Part shown: piece after piece, positions 23,126 to 59,581 of the stretch
Layout of the letters: each line of letters opens with the position of its first letter
Numbering within the stretch: the stretch's first letter is position 1
Sequence record: PZ386967.1
From: a phage
Strand: one strand, 5' to 3'
Length of the DNA stretch: 64,000 nt
Notes under the pieces: model-generated
Databases searched by the model: none
What the model saw: only the letters and a program-made list of their open reading frames with translations
Told to the model about the DNA's origin: nothing
Translations under genes and position numbers: made by a program

Positions 23126-23307
23126 TCCAGACGTGTAACATAGGGGAGGCAACTCCCCCTATCAGGTCTTTGGAGGAGATCGCAGTCATTCAATCCTCTT
23201 TGGTGCTCTCTGGGTTGCTGACACATCCAGAACAAAGTCTCCCCCAGCTCCTCGAGTAGTTCACTTTCACTTTAAATACCTCTGCATTCATTGTGGAGGT
23301 ATTTCTT

Positions 23308-24102
23308 ATGGCCATTCTAAAACTTGGCAACCGTGGCACTGAAGTGAAGGCACTTCAGAATAGCCTCAACAAAATCGGCTTCACCCTCGTCGCTGATGGT
23401 ATCTTTGGCAAGGCAACAGAGAACGCCGTCAAGACTGTTCAGGCGGGTGCGGGGCTTGTCATTGATGGTATCGTGGGTCCAAAGACCTCCTATGCTATTC
23501 GCAACGCCGGAGACGCCCATCAGGATCATCTAACTGAGTCAGACCTGATTGATGCTGCTAACGATCTGGGTGTTGACCTCGCCTCTGTCAAGGCGGTGAA
23601 TCAGGTTGAGTCGCGCGGCACGGGCTTCACCAAGTCAGGTAAGATCAAGACATTATTTGAGCGCCACATCATGTATAAGAAGCTGATGGCGAAGTTCGGA
23701 CAGGCTCGAGCGAATGCCATGGGACATATGTACCCGACGTTGGTCAGTCCTTCCGCAGGCGGGTACACGGGAGGCGACGCGGAGTTGGATCGACTTCATG
23801 CGGCCATCAACATCGATGAGGATTGTGCGTACGAGAGCGCCTCTTACGGTCTCTTCCAGATCATGGGATTCAACTGCCAGATCTGTGGATATGCCAACGC
23901 CAAGGAGATGTTCAACGACTTCCTGACAGGAGAACGTGCTCATTTGATGGCATTCGTGAAGTTCATCAAGGCTGACGCCAAGCTCTGGCAGGCTCTGAAG
24001 GACAAGAACTGGTCTGAATTTGCACGGCGCTATAATGGTCCGGCGTATGCCAAGAACCAGTACGACAAGAAGCTCGCAGCAGCATACAAGAGTTTCAGTT
24101 AA
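23308..24102 (+). CDS. Endolysin: peptidoglycan-binding domain plus muramidase-like domain
   Basis: N-terminal PG_binding_1-like LKLGNRGTEVKALQNSL..GIFGKATENAV; C-terminal NWSEFARRYNGPAYAKNQYDKKL typical of phage muramidase (DUF3380-type) endolysins. Confidence 0.75.
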   Translation: MAILKLGNRGTEVKALQNSLNKIGFTLVADGIFGKATENAVKTVQAGAGLVIDGIVGPKTSYAIRNAGDAHQDHLTESDLIDAANDLGVDLASVKAVNQVESRGTGFTKSGKIKTLFERHIMYKKLMAKFGQARANAMGHMYPTLVSPSAGGYTGGDAELDRLHAAINIDEDCAYESASYGLFQIMGFNCQICGYANAKEMFNDFLTGERAHLMAFVKFIKADAKLWQALKDKNWSEFARRYNGPAYAKNQYDKKLAAAYKSFS

Positions 24103-29939: not shown

Positions 29940-30290
29940 ATGCAAGATTACAAAGAGTTGAGAATGCAGCTGGCAGTCCCCATACCAGACAAAGGTTTAT
30001 ACCAGAACCTGCATCATCTGATGTCTGAAGGGCATATGCTGCCCTTGCGGTCTGAGGATGGATCTCAGATCGGTTATGCCACCAGTTGCGTGGTCTACGA
30101 CAAACCAGGAGACGAAGAGCGCGGAAAGGTCAGTGTGGGTTCCAGATTTGTGTTGAACAAGAAGCTGGAGGGATCAGTGGTTGACGTCAGGCCGATGATT
30201 ATCCTCTACCAATTCAACGGCAAAGAAATGTTCAGGTTATTGAGCCACTTCATGTTAGTCGTGGCTCCGGCATTCAGGACGAAATTCTAA
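29940..30290 (+). CDS. Hypothetical protein
   Basis: ORF close-packed after upstream gene. Confidence 0.4.
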   Translation: MQDYKELRMQLAVPIPDKGLYQNLHHLMSEGHMLPLRSEDGSQIGYATSCVVYDKPGDEERGKVSVGSRFVLNKKLEGSVVDVRPMIILYQFNGKEMFRLLSHFMLVVAPAFRTKF

Positions 30291-30667
30291 TTCGTCCTTT
30301 TCAACCACACGGTGTCTGTTATTGGATCTGGATTGTTGACCACATAGAATGTGATGGTCACGCCCAGAGAGTGGTAATCCTCTGACAGACTCACCGTGAC
30401 TTCTTCTACCTCTGCTCTGGGTTCATACAGGGCGATGGCGTCCTCTACTTTGTTCTTCACATCTACCTGGATAGTCGGTGTCGTGTTTTCACCCAGCAGC
30501 CCATAAAGTCCCGCGCCGATCCCAGGATAAGTGGGCCAGTCCCCGACTGAAGACATGACGATATTCCGCACGGATTGTAAGACAGCATACACACCTGATT
30601 TCATGGTGACATCTTTGGTCACCGGATGCATGCCGAACTTCAGATCGACATCTTTATACTCTTTCAT
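30287..30667 (-). CDS. 25: Baseplate wedge protein gp25-like
   Basis: YEPRAEVEEV and VNNPDPI match T4 gp25 YEPRI and IDNPDDI regions from memory. Confidence 0.7.
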   Translation of the reverse strand: MKEYKDVDLKFGMHPVTKDVTMKSGVYAVLQSVRNIVMSSVGDWPTYPGIGAGLYGLLGENTTPTIQVDVKNKVEDAIALYEPRAEVEEVTVSLSEDYHSLGVTITFYVVNNPDPITDTVWLKRTN

Positions 30668-30740: not shown

Positions 30741-32351
30741 TTACTCTTTGGTGCCGAAATTACCACCATTGTCTTTTAATTCTGCCTTGATGTCAATCTC
30801 ACCCGGACCCGTAGGGGATGCAGGGGTTGCACCTGACAGAGAAGAAGCGCGACCAGCACCTTCGGCATATATGATGTTACCATTGATCGTCTGAGCGACA
30901 GTCAGTTTGTCAGCGATTATCTCAGTCGTTAGAATCTTAGGAACCTTCAATGTCCCACCGACCTCCAGAGTCTCGCAGATAATGCGCAGAATATTCTGCG
31001 CTTGCATTTCCGCTAGGTCACTGAATTTCATCAGCGCTGTGCCCGCAACCACGTTGGAGTAATTGTTGGAATGCAAATGATAGACCTCACCTGTCTTGCG
31101 CTGAACTTCAGTTCCTTTGACCGTCAGGTTGTGGTCCCCGCCGACATAATAACGCTTGTTGAACATCGTCAGGTCATAGTGGTCTTTGACGGACTTGTTG
31201 ACCACATCACCATCCGGCAACATTTGCTTGTAAGACCCAGACTTATGCATCCAGTGAAGACGTTCACCACCAGGGGTGTCGTCCACTTCCATAATATGCC
31301 CAGCTCGGGACACCATGACGTTATTGTACGGGTATTTAGATCCACCCGCAGCCGGAACCATGGTTTCTCCAGTGTTGTCAATATCCTGTACTCGCCCAGT
31401 AGGAGCCGGAGTCGGTTGTTCCTTTGGGGTACGATCTGGGATAGGTTCTGACCATTTACCATTCTGCTGCGCAGGCGCGGCTGTGGCTGTGTTAGCAGGA
31501 CCAGGCCAACGATATCCCAAGACCGAAGAACGTCTGAAACGACTGACCTTCACTGAATCGGATTGGTTGCCACCAATACACCAGACATAGTTTGCATCGA
31601 ACTTCTGCACAAACGCTACGTGTCCAAATGTGGGGTTGTTACCACGCCGGAAGACTACGATAGCGCCATATTGTGGTGCTGACAGTGCAGTACCCCATGT
31701 AAGGTAAGATCGGGCAAGAGCGGAGCGTGTAGACGTGTATCCAGCCTGTATCATAACCCAACCCACGAACGCCGCACACCACGACACTTCATCTTCAGAA
31801 GCACCAAGGGAGGTTGTCTTGTGATATTCTATAATGCGCGGGTTGTTGTTGAACTTTCCGGCATACTCCTTGATACCTAATTCGCCACGAGCGATTGTCA
31901 TCCACTTCTCTGGATCATACCCACCAACAGGTGGTTGTGGATCTGGTTGTGGTTCGTCTTCTTGTTTCACAGGAACGTCAGTGACAGCGTTGTACGCCTG
32001 ACGTTCTACAGATTGAACGACCTGCCCGAGAGCCAGTGGGTTTGTGTCGGCGCCATCAGTAGGACTTGAACCAGTCCAAGTCCAGGTGATGCGTAAATTC
32101 TGGTATGCTTCGTCAAGGGCGAACCCCATAACCTCAGTACCAGGAATGATACCCGTTGGAGACCAACCTAAACCAGCAGAGGAGGCGTTAGAAGCAGGCA
32201 TCAGTACCTTCGCCCACGGGAGTTTGTCTGTAGGCAGGAGGACGGGATCGTCGGTGTGTACGCCATAGATGCGGACGGCGACGCGCCCGTTTTGGTCTGG
32301 ATCGTTGACATCTTCAACGGTGCCGTAAAACCATCTCATATTGTCTAACAT
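30741..32351 (-). CDS. 5: Baseplate central spike gp5-like with CHAP peptidase domain
   Basis: N-terminal OB-fold spike motif (VEDVNDPDQNGRVAVRIYG); central CHAP-like Cys/His pair (SWCAAFVGWV and GHVAFV). Confidence 0.7.
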   Translation of the reverse strand: MLDNMRWFYGTVEDVNDPDQNGRVAVRIYGVHTDDPVLLPTDKLPWAKVLMPASNASSAGLGWSPTGIIPGTEVMGFALDEAYQNLRITWTWTGSSPTDGADTNPLALGQVVQSVERQAYNAVTDVPVKQEDEPQPDPQPPVGGYDPEKWMTIARGELGIKEYAGKFNNNPRIIEYHKTTSLGASEDEVSWCAAFVGWVMIQAGYTSTRSALARSYLTWGTALSAPQYGAIVVFRRGNNPTFGHVAFVQKFDANYVWCIGGNQSDSVKVSRFRRSSVLGYRWPGPANTATAAPAQQNGKWSEPIPDRTPKEQPTPAPTGRVQDIDNTGETMVPAAGGSKYPYNNVMVSRAGHIMEVDDTPGGERLHWMHKSGSYKQMLPDGDVVNKSVKDHYDLTMFNKRYYVGGDHNLTVKGTEVQRKTGEVYHLHSNNYSNVVAGTALMKFSDLAEMQAQNILRIICETLEVGGTLKVPKILTTEIIADKLTVAQTINGNIIYAEGAGRASSLSGATPASPTGPGEIDIKAELKDNGGNFGTKE

Positions 32352-32685
32352 ATTGAGTTCCGGTTGTCAAACAAGGATTTGAAGGTATTTATGCGCAGCT
32401 GATTTTGCCTTATATACTATAGGAAGCTCTGCTTCCGTTCATTTTATTTGTTTTATTCGATCCTATTCGCTTCGCTCATCAAACCGCCCTATGCGGGCAG
32501 CACCATTCCAATGCCATGGAGGCATAAGGGCGAGGCAATAACTGTACACCCCAGAACACTCCTTGAAAAATGGTATTTTACTGACAATCTGATTCAAAAC
32601 AGACAAACACCAACAAATGACTCGGGAACAAGCCCATTATAGCAATTTCAGGTAAAAAGAGCGCGTGTTAACCGATTTTACAGTT

Positions 32686-32716
32686 AAGCCAATAAAAATC
32701 CCGCCGAAGCGGGATT
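32686..32716 (-). terminator. Rho-independent terminator for the minus-strand gene ending at 32864
   Basis: AATCCCGC-ttcg-GCGGGATT followed by TTTTTATT on the minus strand; coordinates approximate. Confidence 0.5.
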
Positions 32717-32863: not shown

Positions 32864-33670
32864 TTAAATGAAAATTTCATTAATACTATTGAATTCGATT
32901 TTGTGCTCCTTACCACATTTCGGACACTTGATCGAACTCTTGTAGTGGATGCGCGGTATTTTATGGAAGAAGTTCTTCGTAATGCTGTCAATAACATCTG
33001 ATTCGATGTTATCCTTCACCCACTCAACAAACGCTTCTTTCACACGGCGGCGCTCAGTAGCCTCTTCCGGAGTGATTCCGATTTCTTCAGGATTCTCAAC
33101 CTTCCACACCTGACCGTCATCATCGTACAGACAGTCGATAAAGGTGGCCAGCATCATCTCAACGCTTGCAGCATCAGACAGTGCCGTAGCGTCCGAGAAG
33201 GAAGGTTGGCGCATCTTGAGGTGATATCCACCTGGCAGGTCAAACGTCTCCCGGAAGCCGTCCTGAGCAATGCATTTGACGTTGTTCAACGGGATAGGTA
33301 GAGTCAGTTCCTGCTCACAGGGAACCATCTGGTGCTTTTCTTGACCATCTCCCAGATCGATCGTTTCTTCAATCTGATTATTGCACTTATAACGAATCTT
33401 CATCAATTCACCGATGGAGATCATGCGCATGCGGATGAACACTTCCTCAACAACGCCGATTGGCAGTTTACTGAAAGGTGCGCCTGCATTTACACACTCG
33501 CTAAAGAGACTCTCCATCATGGCCGCGCGTTCTTCAATCGGCGTTTGCGGATCTGACACCTGAAGTAATAAAGTTTGTTGCCCCGCAGTAAAGGCGCGAT
33601 ATTTGATCACAGTAGGCCAAAAGTCGCTTTTATATGTCTTTTCTGTTCTGGGCAATGATGGTAAATTCAT
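32864..33670 (-). CDS. Hypothetical protein with C-terminal CxxC motif; possible baseplate-associated by position
   Basis: Start trimmed to MNLPSLPRT with GGAG RBS; C-terminal KCPKCGKEHK. Confidence 0.5.
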   Translation of the reverse strand: MNLPSLPRTEKTYKSDFWPTVIKYRAFTAGQQTLLLQVSDPQTPIEERAAMMESLFSECVNAGAPFSKLPIGVVEEVFIRMRMISIGELMKIRYKCNNQIEETIDLGDGQEKHQMVPCEQELTLPIPLNNVKCIAQDGFRETFDLPGGYHLKMRQPSFSDATALSDAASVEMMLATFIDCLYDDDGQVWKVENPEEIGITPEEATERRRVKEAFVEWVKDNIESDVIDSITKNFFHKIPRIHYKSSIKCPKCGKEHKIEFNSINEIFI

Positions 33671-33713: not shown

Positions 33714-34244
33714 ATGAAAATGCGCGGATTTTGTTTTAGTGAAATAGGCAAAGAACTGTCTATACAATATCCCGATCCCAACACAGACTTCTTTATCTTC
33801 CTGACTGATTATGCCAAGAAAGAGAATATCCTCCATGTGGCAATGAAACACGAAGATTATAAGTTCTGTCGGCTGGGTGTCAAAGACCTGCTGCGTTATG
33901 GTCTACAAGTGGTCATTGTAGACCCATACTACAGCCCTATCGACGATGAAGAAGTTCTACCCGTATATGTTCACCGCAACATCAATACATTGGAAAAGCA
34001 TTATCCAGATTGTATTGTCATCGGCGAACTCATCTCGTATTATCATCGTGTGCGAAAGCTGGAACAGATTAAAAGTTATTTTCAAGAGGGTGTTGGTCAA
34101 TATAAGATGAATGCCCTTAGTAGTGGATGGATGGTGCTGTCTTCAGCAGGCAGTGCTGACTATATTAAGATGCGTGTCTACCAATACGTTGTGGAGCGCG
34201 ATTATGAACTGGAGAAAAGTAATGCAAAACGAAAAACCCGTTGA
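33714..34244 (+). CDS. Hypothetical protein
   Basis: Divergent from the minus-strand gene across a 43 bp gap. Confidence 0.45.
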   Translation: MKMRGFCFSEIGKELSIQYPDPNTDFFIFLTDYAKKENILHVAMKHEDYKFCRLGVKDLLRYGLQVVIVDPYYSPIDDEEVLPVYVHRNINTLEKHYPDCIVIGELISYYHRVRKLEQIKSYFQEGVGQYKMNALSSGWMVLSSAGSADYIKMRVYQYVVERDYELEKSNAKRKTR

Positions 34245-38498: not shown

Positions 38499-38506
38499 TA
38501 TTTATA
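38499..38506 (-). promoter_or_regulatory. T4-type late promoter TATAAATA
   Basis: Plus strand reads TATTTATA upstream of minus gene start at 38464; coordinates approximate. Confidence 0.45.
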
Positions 38507-54653: not shown

Positions 54654-56600
54654 TTACCATTCCCACAGGATGCGGGAATTATCTGTTTTGTTCTCAGGCT
54701 CAAGATATGAGCTGTTGAAGTTATTGGTCGTGTTGATCCTCTTAGAAGCATCCACATTCTGCTGTACTGGCATCACGACGCTGGCTGGAGGCGGTGAATA
54801 GCCGCCTTGTACTTGCTCAATATTAGACAGCGCCCTCCCTTGTGTTGGCATGGCCCCGCCCAGAGTACCACCCCCGATAGAACCATACGCAGCTTTCAGC
54901 TGAGAGGTGCGGTCATTAGTCATATTCTTGTCATCCGAAGACGCACCAGAAGGTATTGGAGTCAGCGTTTGTGGATCGATGTTCGGTTGTGCTGGCTTCT
55001 GTGGCTGCTGGGTCTCTGTCACATTAGGAGACGGATTCTCATCAGTGTCAATCAGCATAGACTGGCGAGCCTCATCCATCTTCTGCTTCGCAGCCTGTCC
55101 ACCCAGAGCGTCAGGGATGATGCTGACGAACTTGTCAACGATATCGAACATCGCATTGGTGATTGTGTTCAGCATGTTGAAGAAAGGTTTCTTCACATTT
55201 TCGGCAAATCCCTTCTTGATATCGTCAATGACCTTGTTGGCCACACCCATGCCCTCGTCGATCACACTACTGATACCCCCTGTGATCCAGTCTACCAGCT
55301 TTATCAACTCGGACTGTAGGTTGTCTGCTAACTTGCCAGGGATATCCGTAAGAGACGTGTCTCTCCCGATCCCTGCAAACAAGTCGTTGCTAATCCAGTC
55401 GATAATACCATTCAGCCAACGAGCGGGAGCCTCAGTGATCATGAGGGTGTATTTGCGCAGGGTTTCACCCGCCTCGGTATCAAAGCCAAAGATCTTGGAC
55501 ACCCAGTCAAATAGATCACCAAATCCACCAACCAGTTCTGATATCCCCGCCCGTACTCGGTCAACTATCGTGACAGCACCTTTACCCAGGATCTCCTTCG
55601 CATCAATGAAGCCTTTACCGAAGTCCCAGATCATAGACAGGAGAGCCAGTGGGCCGACTTTCAGGAACTTAAACACCTTCCCAAATGGACCCAGAAGTTT
55701 GGTGATACCTTCTCCCAGCTTGGAGAACATGCCGAGGAAAGTCCCGACAACACCACCGATGATCTTGAACGGCTTGAGCAAGAAGCCCTTCAGTGCATTC
55801 AGGCCAAGCATGGCCGCCACCGCCGCCCCGATACCGGAGGAATCGTCTTTCTGGTCATCGTCTTTGGGTATAACAGAACCCGCCTGAGGATGACCACCCG
55901 TTTCTTTGTCGGTTTCCCCACGGCGCATCTCGTCCTTCTCACGCCACTTCTGGTCTTCATCAAAGATGCGTGTCAACACTCCAACGATATGACCACCCGT
56001 GCGCCCAATCTTGTTTTCAATGCTAGACAAGCGAGTAAGGGTGTCATCGGAGTTCTTTTTCAGTTCAGCAACATCGTCACGAACCTCGATCATCACTCCG
56101 TCGATCATGTTCAAGAATGATCCCACGCGGACCAGAGACACACTCTGCTCGTCCATGCGCTTGAGGGTGTCATCATTGGCAGACTTCAGCTGGTCTGAGA
56201 TCAGGTTAAGATACTCCAGGGACGTGTCATCTGTTGGCATGCGGGTGATCTCACCGAGGCGGTCAATCTTGCCTGCGATATTCTCCAGTTCCCGATTGCC
56301 TTCGTTACCCACATCGACAGTATCCTTCATCCATACGCTGAAGTCGCGGGTGAAGATCGGAGACATGCGAGCGAATCCCATGACGATCTCATTGACTGTC
56401 GGGATACGGATTTCAAATGGCTTGGACTCGGCCTTGGTGCCCTGTTTAGTGGCAGATTCCAGCTTGGCCAGATTCTTGTTCATCCGGTCAAGCTGTCTGT
56501 TGGTTTCATTCTGAGCGCGGAGTTGTTTGCGCTGCATCATCTCCGCCTTGATCTTGTCTAGAACTTTGACAACATCATTGTTCGTTGCTTCCTGTGCCAT
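54654..56600 (-). CDS. 29: Tail tape-measure / baseplate hub protein gp29-like
   Basis: 648 aa with central Gly-rich hydrophobic repeats and N-terminal coiled coil; downstream of hub gene on same strand. Confidence 0.6.
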   Translation of the reverse strand: MAQEATNNDVVKVLDKIKAEMMQRKQLRAQNETNRQLDRMNKNLAKLESATKQGTKAESKPFEIRIPTVNEIVMGFARMSPIFTRDFSVWMKDTVDVGNEGNRELENIAGKIDRLGEITRMPTDDTSLEYLNLISDQLKSANDDTLKRMDEQSVSLVRVGSFLNMIDGVMIEVRDDVAELKKNSDDTLTRLSSIENKIGRTGGHIVGVLTRIFDEDQKWREKDEMRRGETDKETGGHPQAGSVIPKDDDQKDDSSGIGAAVAAMLGLNALKGFLLKPFKIIGGVVGTFLGMFSKLGEGITKLLGPFGKVFKFLKVGPLALLSMIWDFGKGFIDAKEILGKGAVTIVDRVRAGISELVGGFGDLFDWVSKIFGFDTEAGETLRKYTLMITEAPARWLNGIIDWISNDLFAGIGRDTSLTDIPGKLADNLQSELIKLVDWITGGISSVIDEGMGVANKVIDDIKKGFAENVKKPFFNMLNTITNAMFDIVDKFVSIIPDALGGQAAKQKMDEARQSMLIDTDENPSPNVTETQQPQKPAQPNIDPQTLTPIPSGASSDDKNMTNDRTSQLKAAYGSIGGGTLGGAMPTQGRALSNIEQVQGGYSPPPASVVMPVQQNVDASKRINTTNNFNSSYLEPENKTDNSRILWEW

Positions 56601-56611
56601 GGGTCACCTCG

Positions 56612-58000
56612 TTAAACCTTCTGTGCTTGGCCTTTCTCAATCGCCTGAGGAGTAGTGGTGGAAGCAGTTGTCTGATTGGTCTGAGGTGGAAGCACCTGCT
56701 CCAGCAAACTGTCCTTGGCAATCTCAGCGATGCACTGATAATCTTTGGTCAGGCGGGAAATTTTGTGACGCACTTTGGTCACGATATAGTGGCCTGTCGA
56801 TAGCTTACTTAACTCTGCCAGGTTTTCGTTCTTCTTAGGACGGTTGGACTGGTCTTCGACGTAGAACACCTGACCGACGTTCAGGCGGTTATCACCAACG
56901 AGCAACACGCGCATCACAGTGCTGGCAAGACTGAAGTTGATAACACGACGAGCATAATCAATCTGCTCCGCTCCATCCGGCTGGGCTTCAATGTAACGGA
57001 CGTTCTGACGATTGAATTCATCTGAGAACATCGGGAACGGATCAAGGTGAGCCGTCTCTGCAAACCACTCAGTATAGATGCGCTGTGTTGGGGTGACTGT
57101 CTTGGTCTCAAAGTCGTAGACGCGCTCGTTCACCGCCAGGACATCGCGGTAGTTTGCCATAAATTGGTCACGCGTCAGCTTCTTCTCTGCCTTGATGATC
57201 GTGCGCATAAAGCGCTCAGAGTTGAAGTTGTTATCCTGCATGAGCGGTGCGTCCTGAGGATCACGGAATAACTTGTTCTGCTGAGCCAGTTCCTGCTTCT
57301 CTTCTGCCGTCAATGACTGGCTGCCCTGGTTGAACAACGTCGTCAGGCTCTTGAAGTGATAGCCATTGAAGTCTTCATAGAAAACGAATGGCATGAACAA
57401 TTCGTCATAAGAACGGCTCGCCATATAATCAATAGATCGCAGCACAGGCCAGAGCGGGGTGGCGAACCGCTCTTGAATTCCATACGACGGGTCGATGTCT
57501 TCGAACTTGGTGCGCGACTCCAACTGATTGAAGATTGCCTTCGCCATGTCAGAATACGAACCGTCGAGACCGAGGGAGCATCGGATCATGCTGTCCTTAT
57601 AGGCATCGGTGGTCACCATGTGCAACCAGAATGCTTTCTTGGACGAGCTGTTGGACTCATCAGCTACGCGCCCAACACGCGCTACGCGCAGGGAGAGAGT
57701 GGTGTATTCCGAGGCCGCCGGACTCTTGAATGACACCACAACTTCTTCACCACCCAAGATAGGCATTGTGTCAAGAATGTCCCACCCTTCTTTTATCAAG
57801 ACATTGGCTGTAAGTGATGGAGATGACTTCCCTTCAAGACCCAGATCCTGGAATACGTTGAACTCCTCAAACAACGCCGTCAGGTCATATGGCGTTGGTG
57901 ATCCGCCCTGGGGTGTATGAGGGAGTATCGCCATATACTTCAGGTCAAATGTTGTTGACGGTGTTACAATACCGTCTTGGGTCTCTCTGTTTTCGATCAT
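56612..58000 (-). CDS. 27: Baseplate hub subunit gp27-like
   Basis: Position immediately upstream of the tape-measure gene; assignment by context. Confidence 0.45.
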   Translation of the reverse strand: MIENRETQDGIVTPSTTFDLKYMAILPHTPQGGSPTPYDLTALFEEFNVFQDLGLEGKSSPSLTANVLIKEGWDILDTMPILGGEEVVVSFKSPAASEYTTLSLRVARVGRVADESNSSSKKAFWLHMVTTDAYKDSMIRCSLGLDGSYSDMAKAIFNQLESRTKFEDIDPSYGIQERFATPLWPVLRSIDYMASRSYDELFMPFVFYEDFNGYHFKSLTTLFNQGSQSLTAEEKQELAQQNKLFRDPQDAPLMQDNNFNSERFMRTIIKAEKKLTRDQFMANYRDVLAVNERVYDFETKTVTPTQRIYTEWFAETAHLDPFPMFSDEFNRQNVRYIEAQPDGAEQIDYARRVINFSLASTVMRVLLVGDNRLNVGQVFYVEDQSNRPKKNENLAELSKLSTGHYIVTKVRHKISRLTKDYQCIAEIAKDSLLEQVLPPQTNQTTASTTTPQAIEKGQAQKV

Positions 58001-59531: not shown

Positions 59532-59581
59532 GGTCTCAGCCCTTAAATAGATAGAGTGTTATGGCTATTTAGGACTAGATT
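59532..59581. promoter_or_regulatory. Divergent late promoter region with TAAATAG inverted repeat
   Basis: 50 bp gap containing TAAATAG ... CTATTTA, close to the TATAAATA late-promoter octamer on each strand. Confidence 0.4.

Follow-up and report, generated by a model that had tools for sequence, protein, structure and literature searches.

The gp5-type central spike encoded in the window, the whole 64 kb stretch of phage DNA that was analysed, very probably carries a CHAP peptidase with a Cys192-His244-Asn262 triad as its cargo and opens peptidoglycan through an amide bond of the peptide moiety. The central domain of this protein is an intact-looking NlpC/P60-CHAP cysteine peptidase that replaces the lysozyme cassette. 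The gene is an ATG-start ORF of 536 aa plus stop that fills exactly 30741-32351 on the minus strand, and it stands in a baseplate-gene context, with a gp26-like gene on one side and a gp25-like gene on the other:

30741..32351, minus strand: gp5-type baseplate central spike / hub protein, whole gene (ORF; PHROG 430, E 1.8e-154; annotation of relatives)
30287..30667, minus strand: gp25-like baseplate wedge protein, downstream neighbour (Pfam GPW_gp25 and PHROG 261)
32864..33670, minus strand: gp26-like baseplate hub protein, upstream neighbour (Pfam T4_baseplate, E 1.5e-46); the start was adopted from annotated relatives, the 'T4-like gp26' of AV101 being 807 nt long

The spike gene shares 98-99% nucleotide identity with those of Escherichia phages AV101, PC3, A221, RPN242 and others, Aglimvirinae relatives whose copies are annotated 'baseplate hub subunit (T4-like gp5)', and about 91% with that of Shigella phage Ag3. 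At the protein level, identity to Kuttervirus, Limestonevirus and Taipeivirus phages is 80-90%. The window overall is 98-99% identical to deposited Aglimvirinae coliphages, and in AV101 (Ackermannviridae, Aglimvirinae) the gene, named 'baseplate hub protein (T4-like gp5)', is likewise flanked by gp26-like and gp25-like genes. The spike gene belongs to a Vi1-like (Ackermannviridae, Aglimvirinae) myovirus. Judged only from published proteomics of orthologs, its product is a virion component: the ViI ortholog was found in particle proteomics (Kutter 2011, PMC3184105), and the 'tail associated lysozyme' of Sajous1 was identified via virion mass spectrometry.

Comparison with T4 divides the protein into a shared scaffold and an unrelated insert. 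Against a T4-type gp5, BLASTP aligned aa 3-94 at 42% identity and aa 339-435 at 36%, with nothing between, and solved structures of T4 gp5 matched at aa 1-93 and 337-432 only. The resulting layout is as follows:

31962..32351, minus strand: N-terminal OB-fold domain, about aa 1-130 (Pfam Gp5_OB at aa 39-96; T4 gp5 alignments)
31926..31961, minus strand: Pro/Glu-rich linker 1, aa 131-142, EDEPQPDPQPPV (sequence composition)
31503..31925, minus strand: CHAP / TIGR02594 (NlpC/P60 superfamily) cysteine peptidase domain, aa 143-283 (Pfam, NCBIfam, fold)
31344..31502, minus strand: Pro/Ala/Thr-rich linker 2, aa 284-336 (65% of residues are P/T/S/A/G/Q)
30867..31343, minus strand: C-terminal needle region, aa 337-495 (aa 337-432 correspond to T4 gp5 385-477)
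30744..30866, minus strand: low-complexity C-terminal tail, aa 496-536 (family alignment)

The preliminary description had credited the protein with a gp5-like OB-fold signature at its N-terminus, and the profile search bore this out. Pfam Gp5_OB scored 48.1 bits (cut-off 25; E 1.9e-12), and aa 1-93 aligned with residues 4-101 of T4 gp5 in solved structures (E ~1e-14 to 3e-16). In T4, the counterpart of this domain docks onto the gp27 hub. Conservation within the family is lowest in linker 1 (mean identity 52%). Linker 2 showed no alignment to T4 gp5; its position is equivalent to that of the T4 gp5 linker holding the maturation cleavage site. Downstream of it, aa 337-432 aligned to T4 gp5 residues 385-477 (E ~1e-13), and no match to Pfam Gp5_C or Gp5_trimer_C was obtained in the spike by Pfam scan, distal needle included. 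By sequence, the first ~100 aa of the needle appear to share ancestry with the opening part of the T4 gp5 beta-helix, and the distal part appears lineage-specific. A full-length AlphaFold monomer (AF2, 15 orthologs) had a mean pLDDT of 42, with values below 40 in the needle region, which it left unresolved; this model was dropped and supports no claim made here.

The tail ends in L-x-D-x-G-G-N-F (aa 525-532), which is invariant in the 15-ortholog alignment. This motif may form the tip of the spike or the docking site for a tip protein, and it could represent a new spike-tip or docking element in place of a PAAR cap. Among 10 small ORFs of the window, none gave a Pfam match to a PAAR cap. Orthologs of the Serratia phage 3M and Erwinia phage phiEa2809 types have an extra C-terminal extension of ~75 aa that includes a conserved small terminal module. 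Two large structural ORFs adjoin the gp53-like and gp48-like genes at 54654-58000 (minus strand), one of 648 aa (PHROG 3799, weak tape-measure similarity) and one of 462 aa (PHROG 350 'tail protein', no Pfam domain). The latter, at 56612-58000, is a candidate hub partner of the spike; a sequence search of the PDB gave no gp27 match for it.

Between the two linkers, the preliminary description had noticed a Cys/His pair of CHAP type in place of a lysozyme. The sequence contains both motifs: SWCAAFVGWV occupies aa 190-199 (window 31755-31784) and GHVAFV occupies aa 243-248 (window 31608-31625). Both family profiles score well above their cut-offs and far outside chance expectation. Pfam CHAP matched aa 187-262 with model positions 4-81 of 81 at 43.1 bits (cut-off 26; E 6e-11), and NCBIfam TIGR02594 matched aa 150-282 with model positions 2-132 of 132 at 129.3 bits (cut-off 70.55; E 1.1e-37). 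The profile scan detected no lysozyme or glycoside hydrolase family in the spike protein, whereas a T4-type gp5 put through the same Pfam scan returned Phage_lysozyme and Gp5_C repeats, both absent from the spike. The central domain has the profile, the triad and the papain-like alpha+beta fold of the CHAP / NlpC-P60 family (Pfam clan CL0125). A domain search, proposed earlier as the check with a lysozyme/GH fold as the contrary outcome, thus resolves the region as CHAP/NlpC-P60 and the domain call stands, which makes the label 'tail lysozyme' a misnomer.

The residues of the predicted active site were followed in two alignments, one of 43 TIGR02594 sequences (the spike domain and 42 stand-alone homologs) and one of 15 Ackermannviridae orthologs with identity down to 59%:

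31776..31778, minus strand: Cys192 codon, predicted catalytic nucleophile (invariant in 43/43 TIGR02594 sequences and 15/15 orthologs)
31620..31622, minus strand: His244 codon, predicted catalytic base (invariant in both alignments)
31566..31568, minus strand: Asn262 codon in a GGNQ motif, predicted third residue of the triad (invariant in both alignments)

Asn262 is the final position of the Pfam CHAP match. Within the spike protein, conservation is highest in the CHAP segment: mean identity among orthologs is 83% there, 70% in the OB domain and 58% in the distal needle. Together with the invariance of the triad, this conservation argues for selection on catalysis. Sequence searches of the PDB with the domain and its profile returned sub-significant matches only (E 0.06-0.4), in which the motif correspondence is nevertheless seen: the profile search set Cys192 on the Cys motif 'DCSSF' and His244 on the 'GHV' of CwlO, a placement with weak E-values at the sequence level yet consistent with the fold match. 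The 'GHV' of the phi812 hub C51 domain likewise aligned with His244. Fold comparison ranked C. difficile Acd24020 highest (15.0), followed by LytE (14.4), the LysIME-EF1 CHAP (13.4), CwlO (12.9), MepS (12.8), the LysGH15 CHAP (11.0), Tae3 (10.7) and Tse1 (8.8), with sequence identities to the CHAP domain of 10-22% throughout.

Could the domain be something other than a working peptidoglycan hydrolase? A catalytically dead module, structural or peptidoglycan-binding, would leave penetration purely mechanical. The activity of the CHAP domain is a prediction from sequence and fold, and a passage of PMC11948020 describes some contractile phages that have no enzymatic penetration domains. Dead domains, by comparison, usually lose their triad, and here Cys, His and Asn are invariant in 43 + 15 sequences within the best conserved segment, so that we give this reading hardly any weight. 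It is very improbable too that the enzyme acts on an amide outside peptidoglycan, such as the Braun lipoprotein-mDAP link, another periplasmic target or a phage protein in self-processing. The papain-like CHAP fold does include glutathionylspermidine amidase and bacteriocin-processing peptidases, and T4 gp5 itself undergoes a maturation cleavage by an unclear route. Against such substrates, the best fold matches are all peptidoglycan hydrolases, and close homologs (about 50% identity) very frequently come with an attached PG_binding_1, LysM, SH3 or GH108 module, as is typical of cell-wall hydrolases. Stand-alone homologs at ~50-58% identity number more than 1,200; most are named TIGR02594 and many carry one of these modules.

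Peptidoglycan is the preferred substrate, and the choice narrows to the bond. The preliminary description had the enzyme cleaving peptide cross-links rather than glycan strands; a peptide or amide bond in place of a glycan one is accepted, while 'cross-links' is over-specific, since the fold spans three bond classes. Bond specificity is unreadable from the fold alone. The top structural neighbours (Acd24020, LytE, CwlO, the Thermus D,L-endopeptidase and the YkfC-like 2evr/3h41) are gamma-D-Glu-diamino-acid endopeptidases, and gamma-D-Glu-mDAP within the stem, the bond of a D,L-endopeptidase, is tentatively our leading candidate. DD-endopeptidases and MurNAc-L-Ala amidases share the fold at slightly lower scores, which leaves cross-link cleavage as one of three options. 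Cutting of the mDAP-D-Ala (4-3) cross-links between stems, as by MepS or the T6SS effectors Tae2 and Tae3, seems unlikely given that the highest-scoring neighbours cut the other bond and that the domain has no sequence feature specific to MepS or Tae3, with identities all only 14-22%. An N-acetylmuramoyl-L-alanine amidase, which would strip whole stem peptides off the glycan at the MurNAc-L-Ala amide as several CHAP domains do, is doubtful to a similar degree: amidase matches rank below the endopeptidases, and Kutter 2011 (PMC3184105) had, by database annotation, put the domain in the D,L-glutamate-specific amidohydrolase class. A literature search found no enzymatic assay or structural study of the spike or any ortholog, and a search of the PDB returned no Ackermannviridae spike structure. 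According to a 2017 review, phi6 P5 was the sole endopeptidase demonstrated among the virion lysins of Gram-negative phages.

For the D,L-endopeptidase reading and its two alternatives alike, the proposed course of entry would be modelled on T4. The T4 gp5 scaffold is retained, with the N-terminal OB domain predicted to dock on the baseplate hub and the C-terminal part to form a trimeric needle, and a TIGR02594-type CHAP/NlpC-P60 peptidase between two proline-rich linkers substitutes for the lysozyme cassette. Sheath contraction would then drive the needle through the outer membrane, and its release would expose the enzyme. Tethered in three copies at the tube tip, the peptidase would digest peptidoglycan locally and let the tail tube reach the inner membrane; an amide bond of the peptide moiety is predicted to be hydrolysed and the glycan backbone spared. 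The T4 order of needle piercing, needle release and local peptidoglycan digestion is summarised in PMC7677548, and trimerisation, gp27 docking, maturation cleavage and needle release are carried over to the spike by analogy with that phage.

Exit from the host is served by a different gene:

23293-24102, plus strand: endolysin, PG_binding_1 and N-acetylmuramidase (PF11860) (domain matches)

Given this separate muramidase, the idea that the spike doubles as the lysis enzyme was rejected; the entry and exit enzymes are unrelated and attack different bonds. This is unlike T4, in which the gp5 and gpe lysozymes are paralogs. In some records the endolysin gene is labelled merely 'peptidoglycan binding protein'.

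Upstream of the spike gene, and of the gp54-like and gp48-like genes, we found motifs of one type at one spacing, together with a hairpin ahead of the spike gene:

32386..32393, minus strand: CATAAATA, late-promoter-like motif of T4 type whose end lies 34 nt before the gp5 ATG (consensus match only)
38499-38506, minus strand: TATAAATA, ending exactly 34 nt before the start codon of the gp54-like gene (consensus match)
about 59565-59572, minus strand: CCTAAATA, at 34-nt distance from the gp48-like gene
32697..32716, minus strand: strong intrinsic-terminator-like hairpin, closing the gp26-like transcription unit (sequence)

ATAAATA occurs only 4 times in the 64 kb window, and 2 of these copies end at -34, before the gp5 and gp54-like genes. 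These motifs look like T4-type (gp55) late promoters whose leaders are constant in length; Kutter 2011 (PMC3184105) stated that no late promoter had been identified for this phage group. About 345 nt of apparently non-coding sequence (32352-32696, minus strand) lie between the terminator hairpin and the gp5 start, a gap shared by AV101. An Rfam scan of this stretch gave nothing above gathering thresholds, the weak matches merely overlapping the hairpin. A perfect sigma-70 consensus (TTGACA, 16 nt, TATAAT; 12/12) at 33856-33883 (minus strand) precedes the gp26-like gene by ~185 nt, within a divergent intergenic region.

To see how the spike cargo is distributed, aa 1-290 were searched exhaustively against 1.84 billion representative proteins (E 1e-3 or better). 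The search returned 10,566 proteins, with the whole of Ackermannviridae collapsed into one representative, and among the top 150 matches ~15-20 other 50%-identity clusters span both OB and CHAP. Pfam scans revealed the following architectures:

Rhizobium phage RL2RES gp241, and P0144, P0145, P0244 and P0265: OB and CHAP, no needle
Acinetobacter phage SH-Ab 15599: split gene, OB and CHAP followed by a separate 486-aa ORF
P0241 and P0251: OB, SLT and CHAP (P0251 also with Gp5_trimer_C)
P0270: OB, Gp5_C repeats and a C-terminal CHAP
P0146: OB and NlpC/P60
P0148: OB and a VgrG3-like C domain
P0330: evolved T6SS VgrG with a C-terminal CHAP

P0330 is a metagenomic protein of 956 aa with Phage_GPD, Phage_base_V and Gp5_trimer_C, and its CHAP is ~46% identical to the spike domain, so that phage spikes and T6SS spikes have this effector module in common. 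In SH-Ab 15599 (Ackermannviridae; locus L005, 1959-4368), adjacent ORFs encode 315 aa (OB and CHAP) and 486 aa (a presumed needle, no Pfam match), and this is either a natural split where linker 2 would lie or the product of a frameshift in sequencing. In BFVD, a 'tail associated lysozyme' of 1359 aa is 41% identical to the CHAP domain. The 'gp5' of Vibrio phage ICP1 (GP207; locus L004, 2752-3468) was rejected as a further example: it has PG_binding_1 and CHAP and no OB domain, and its position next to nrdAB and phoH makes it more likely a mislabelled enzyme of the endolysin type. The fold is also present in solved tail hubs, among them the diffocin hub-hydrolase, the phi812 hub and Andhra gp10. 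Together, the several OB and VgrG cargo architectures and the solved hubs indicate that cargo swapping on spikes is a general and recognised theme.

The gp5 spike emerges as a modular carrier, with lineages exchanging the cargo that cuts the cell wall; lysozyme, SLT, VgrG3-like, NlpC/P60 and CHAP are the cargoes observed. For an entire family of phages that serve in biocontrol against Salmonella, E. coli O157, Klebsiella and Dickeya, the label 'tail lysozyme' is wrong, and the CHAP domain is a candidate peptidoglycan peptidase active on Gram-negative bacteria. Its presence predicts that lysozyme-directed inhibitors of host or phage fail to block the entry of these phages. An improbable extension of this idea is that the swap from lysozyme to cysteine peptidase was an adaptive escape, implying a Tai-like periplasmic immunity protein in Ackermannviridae. 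If true, the swap would evade periplasmic lysozyme inhibitors (Ivy/MliC/PliC-type), peptidoglycan O-acetylation and Spackle-type superinfection exclusion, and the Tai-like protein, still unrecognised in this family, would block the CHAP of superinfecting relatives.

The OB and CHAP architecture is already known from CBA120 (2011) and PhiSH19, and as an observation it is not new. Kutter et al. 2011 (Virol J 8:430, PMC3184105, 'Baseplate Lysozyme') described the 537-aa gp5 homolog of CBA120 as being without the usual lysozyme, with a putative CHAP of the TIGR02594 family (NlpC/P60 superfamily) at aa 150-282 between gp5-like flanks at 3-109 and 334-437, and the genome paper of PhiSH19 lists the ortholog as 'Gp5 OB family & CHAP domain'. 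The orthologs of CBA120, Vi01/ViI, PhiSH19 ('tail-associated lysozyme') and AV101 share 84-99% amino acid identity with the spike of the window, and in length, domain order and synteny nothing substantive differs. The window copy is an Aglimvirinae allele. Misleading names persist in databases ('tail lysozyme', 'hypothetical protein', 'cell wall-associated hydrolase'); at NCBI a prophage-like copy is named 'TIGR02594 family protein' and one phage record reads 'cell wall-associated hydrolase'.

T4 gp5 (PDB 1K28, 1WTH, 5IV5) resembles the spike in placing an enzyme cassette between OB domain and needle and in its baseplate neighbourhood. It differs in the enzyme, a GH24 lysozyme as against a cysteine peptidase, so that a different bond is attacked. 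T4 also has Gp5_C octapeptide repeats, which were not detected in the spike, and gp5.1/gp5.4 (PAAR) genes, which are not adjacent to the spike gene, whereas the C-terminal tail with its DNGGNF motif is found in the spike and is absent in T4. Stand-alone TIGR02594 proteins (predicted phage endolysins and T6SS-associated effectors) have the same invariant Cys, His and Asn at 50-58% identity along the entire domain; they are soluble proteins of ~140-220 aa, often with PG_binding_1, SH3 or LysM, whereas the window domain is embedded in a structural spike. In T6SS effector clusters, a role of TIGR02594 in peptidoglycan degradation has been inferred. The structurally solved NlpC/P60 D,L-endopeptidases Acd24020 (7CFL), LytE (8I2F) and CwlO (8WT3) of B. 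subtilis, and E. coli MepS share only 18-22% identity with the window domain, at which level substrate specificity is not confidently transferable. The diffocin hub-hydrolase CD1368 (8V3W), the phi812 hub C51/CHAP (9EUF/9EUM), Andhra gp10 and the VgrG P0330 share with the spike the idea of a peptidoglycan peptidase on the tail tip or spike. Diffocin, phi812, Andhra and P0330 differ from it in having other scaffolds and attachment points, in mostly Gram-positive-targeting systems, and in P0330 and P0270 the CHAP follows the needle, whereas in the window spike it precedes it.
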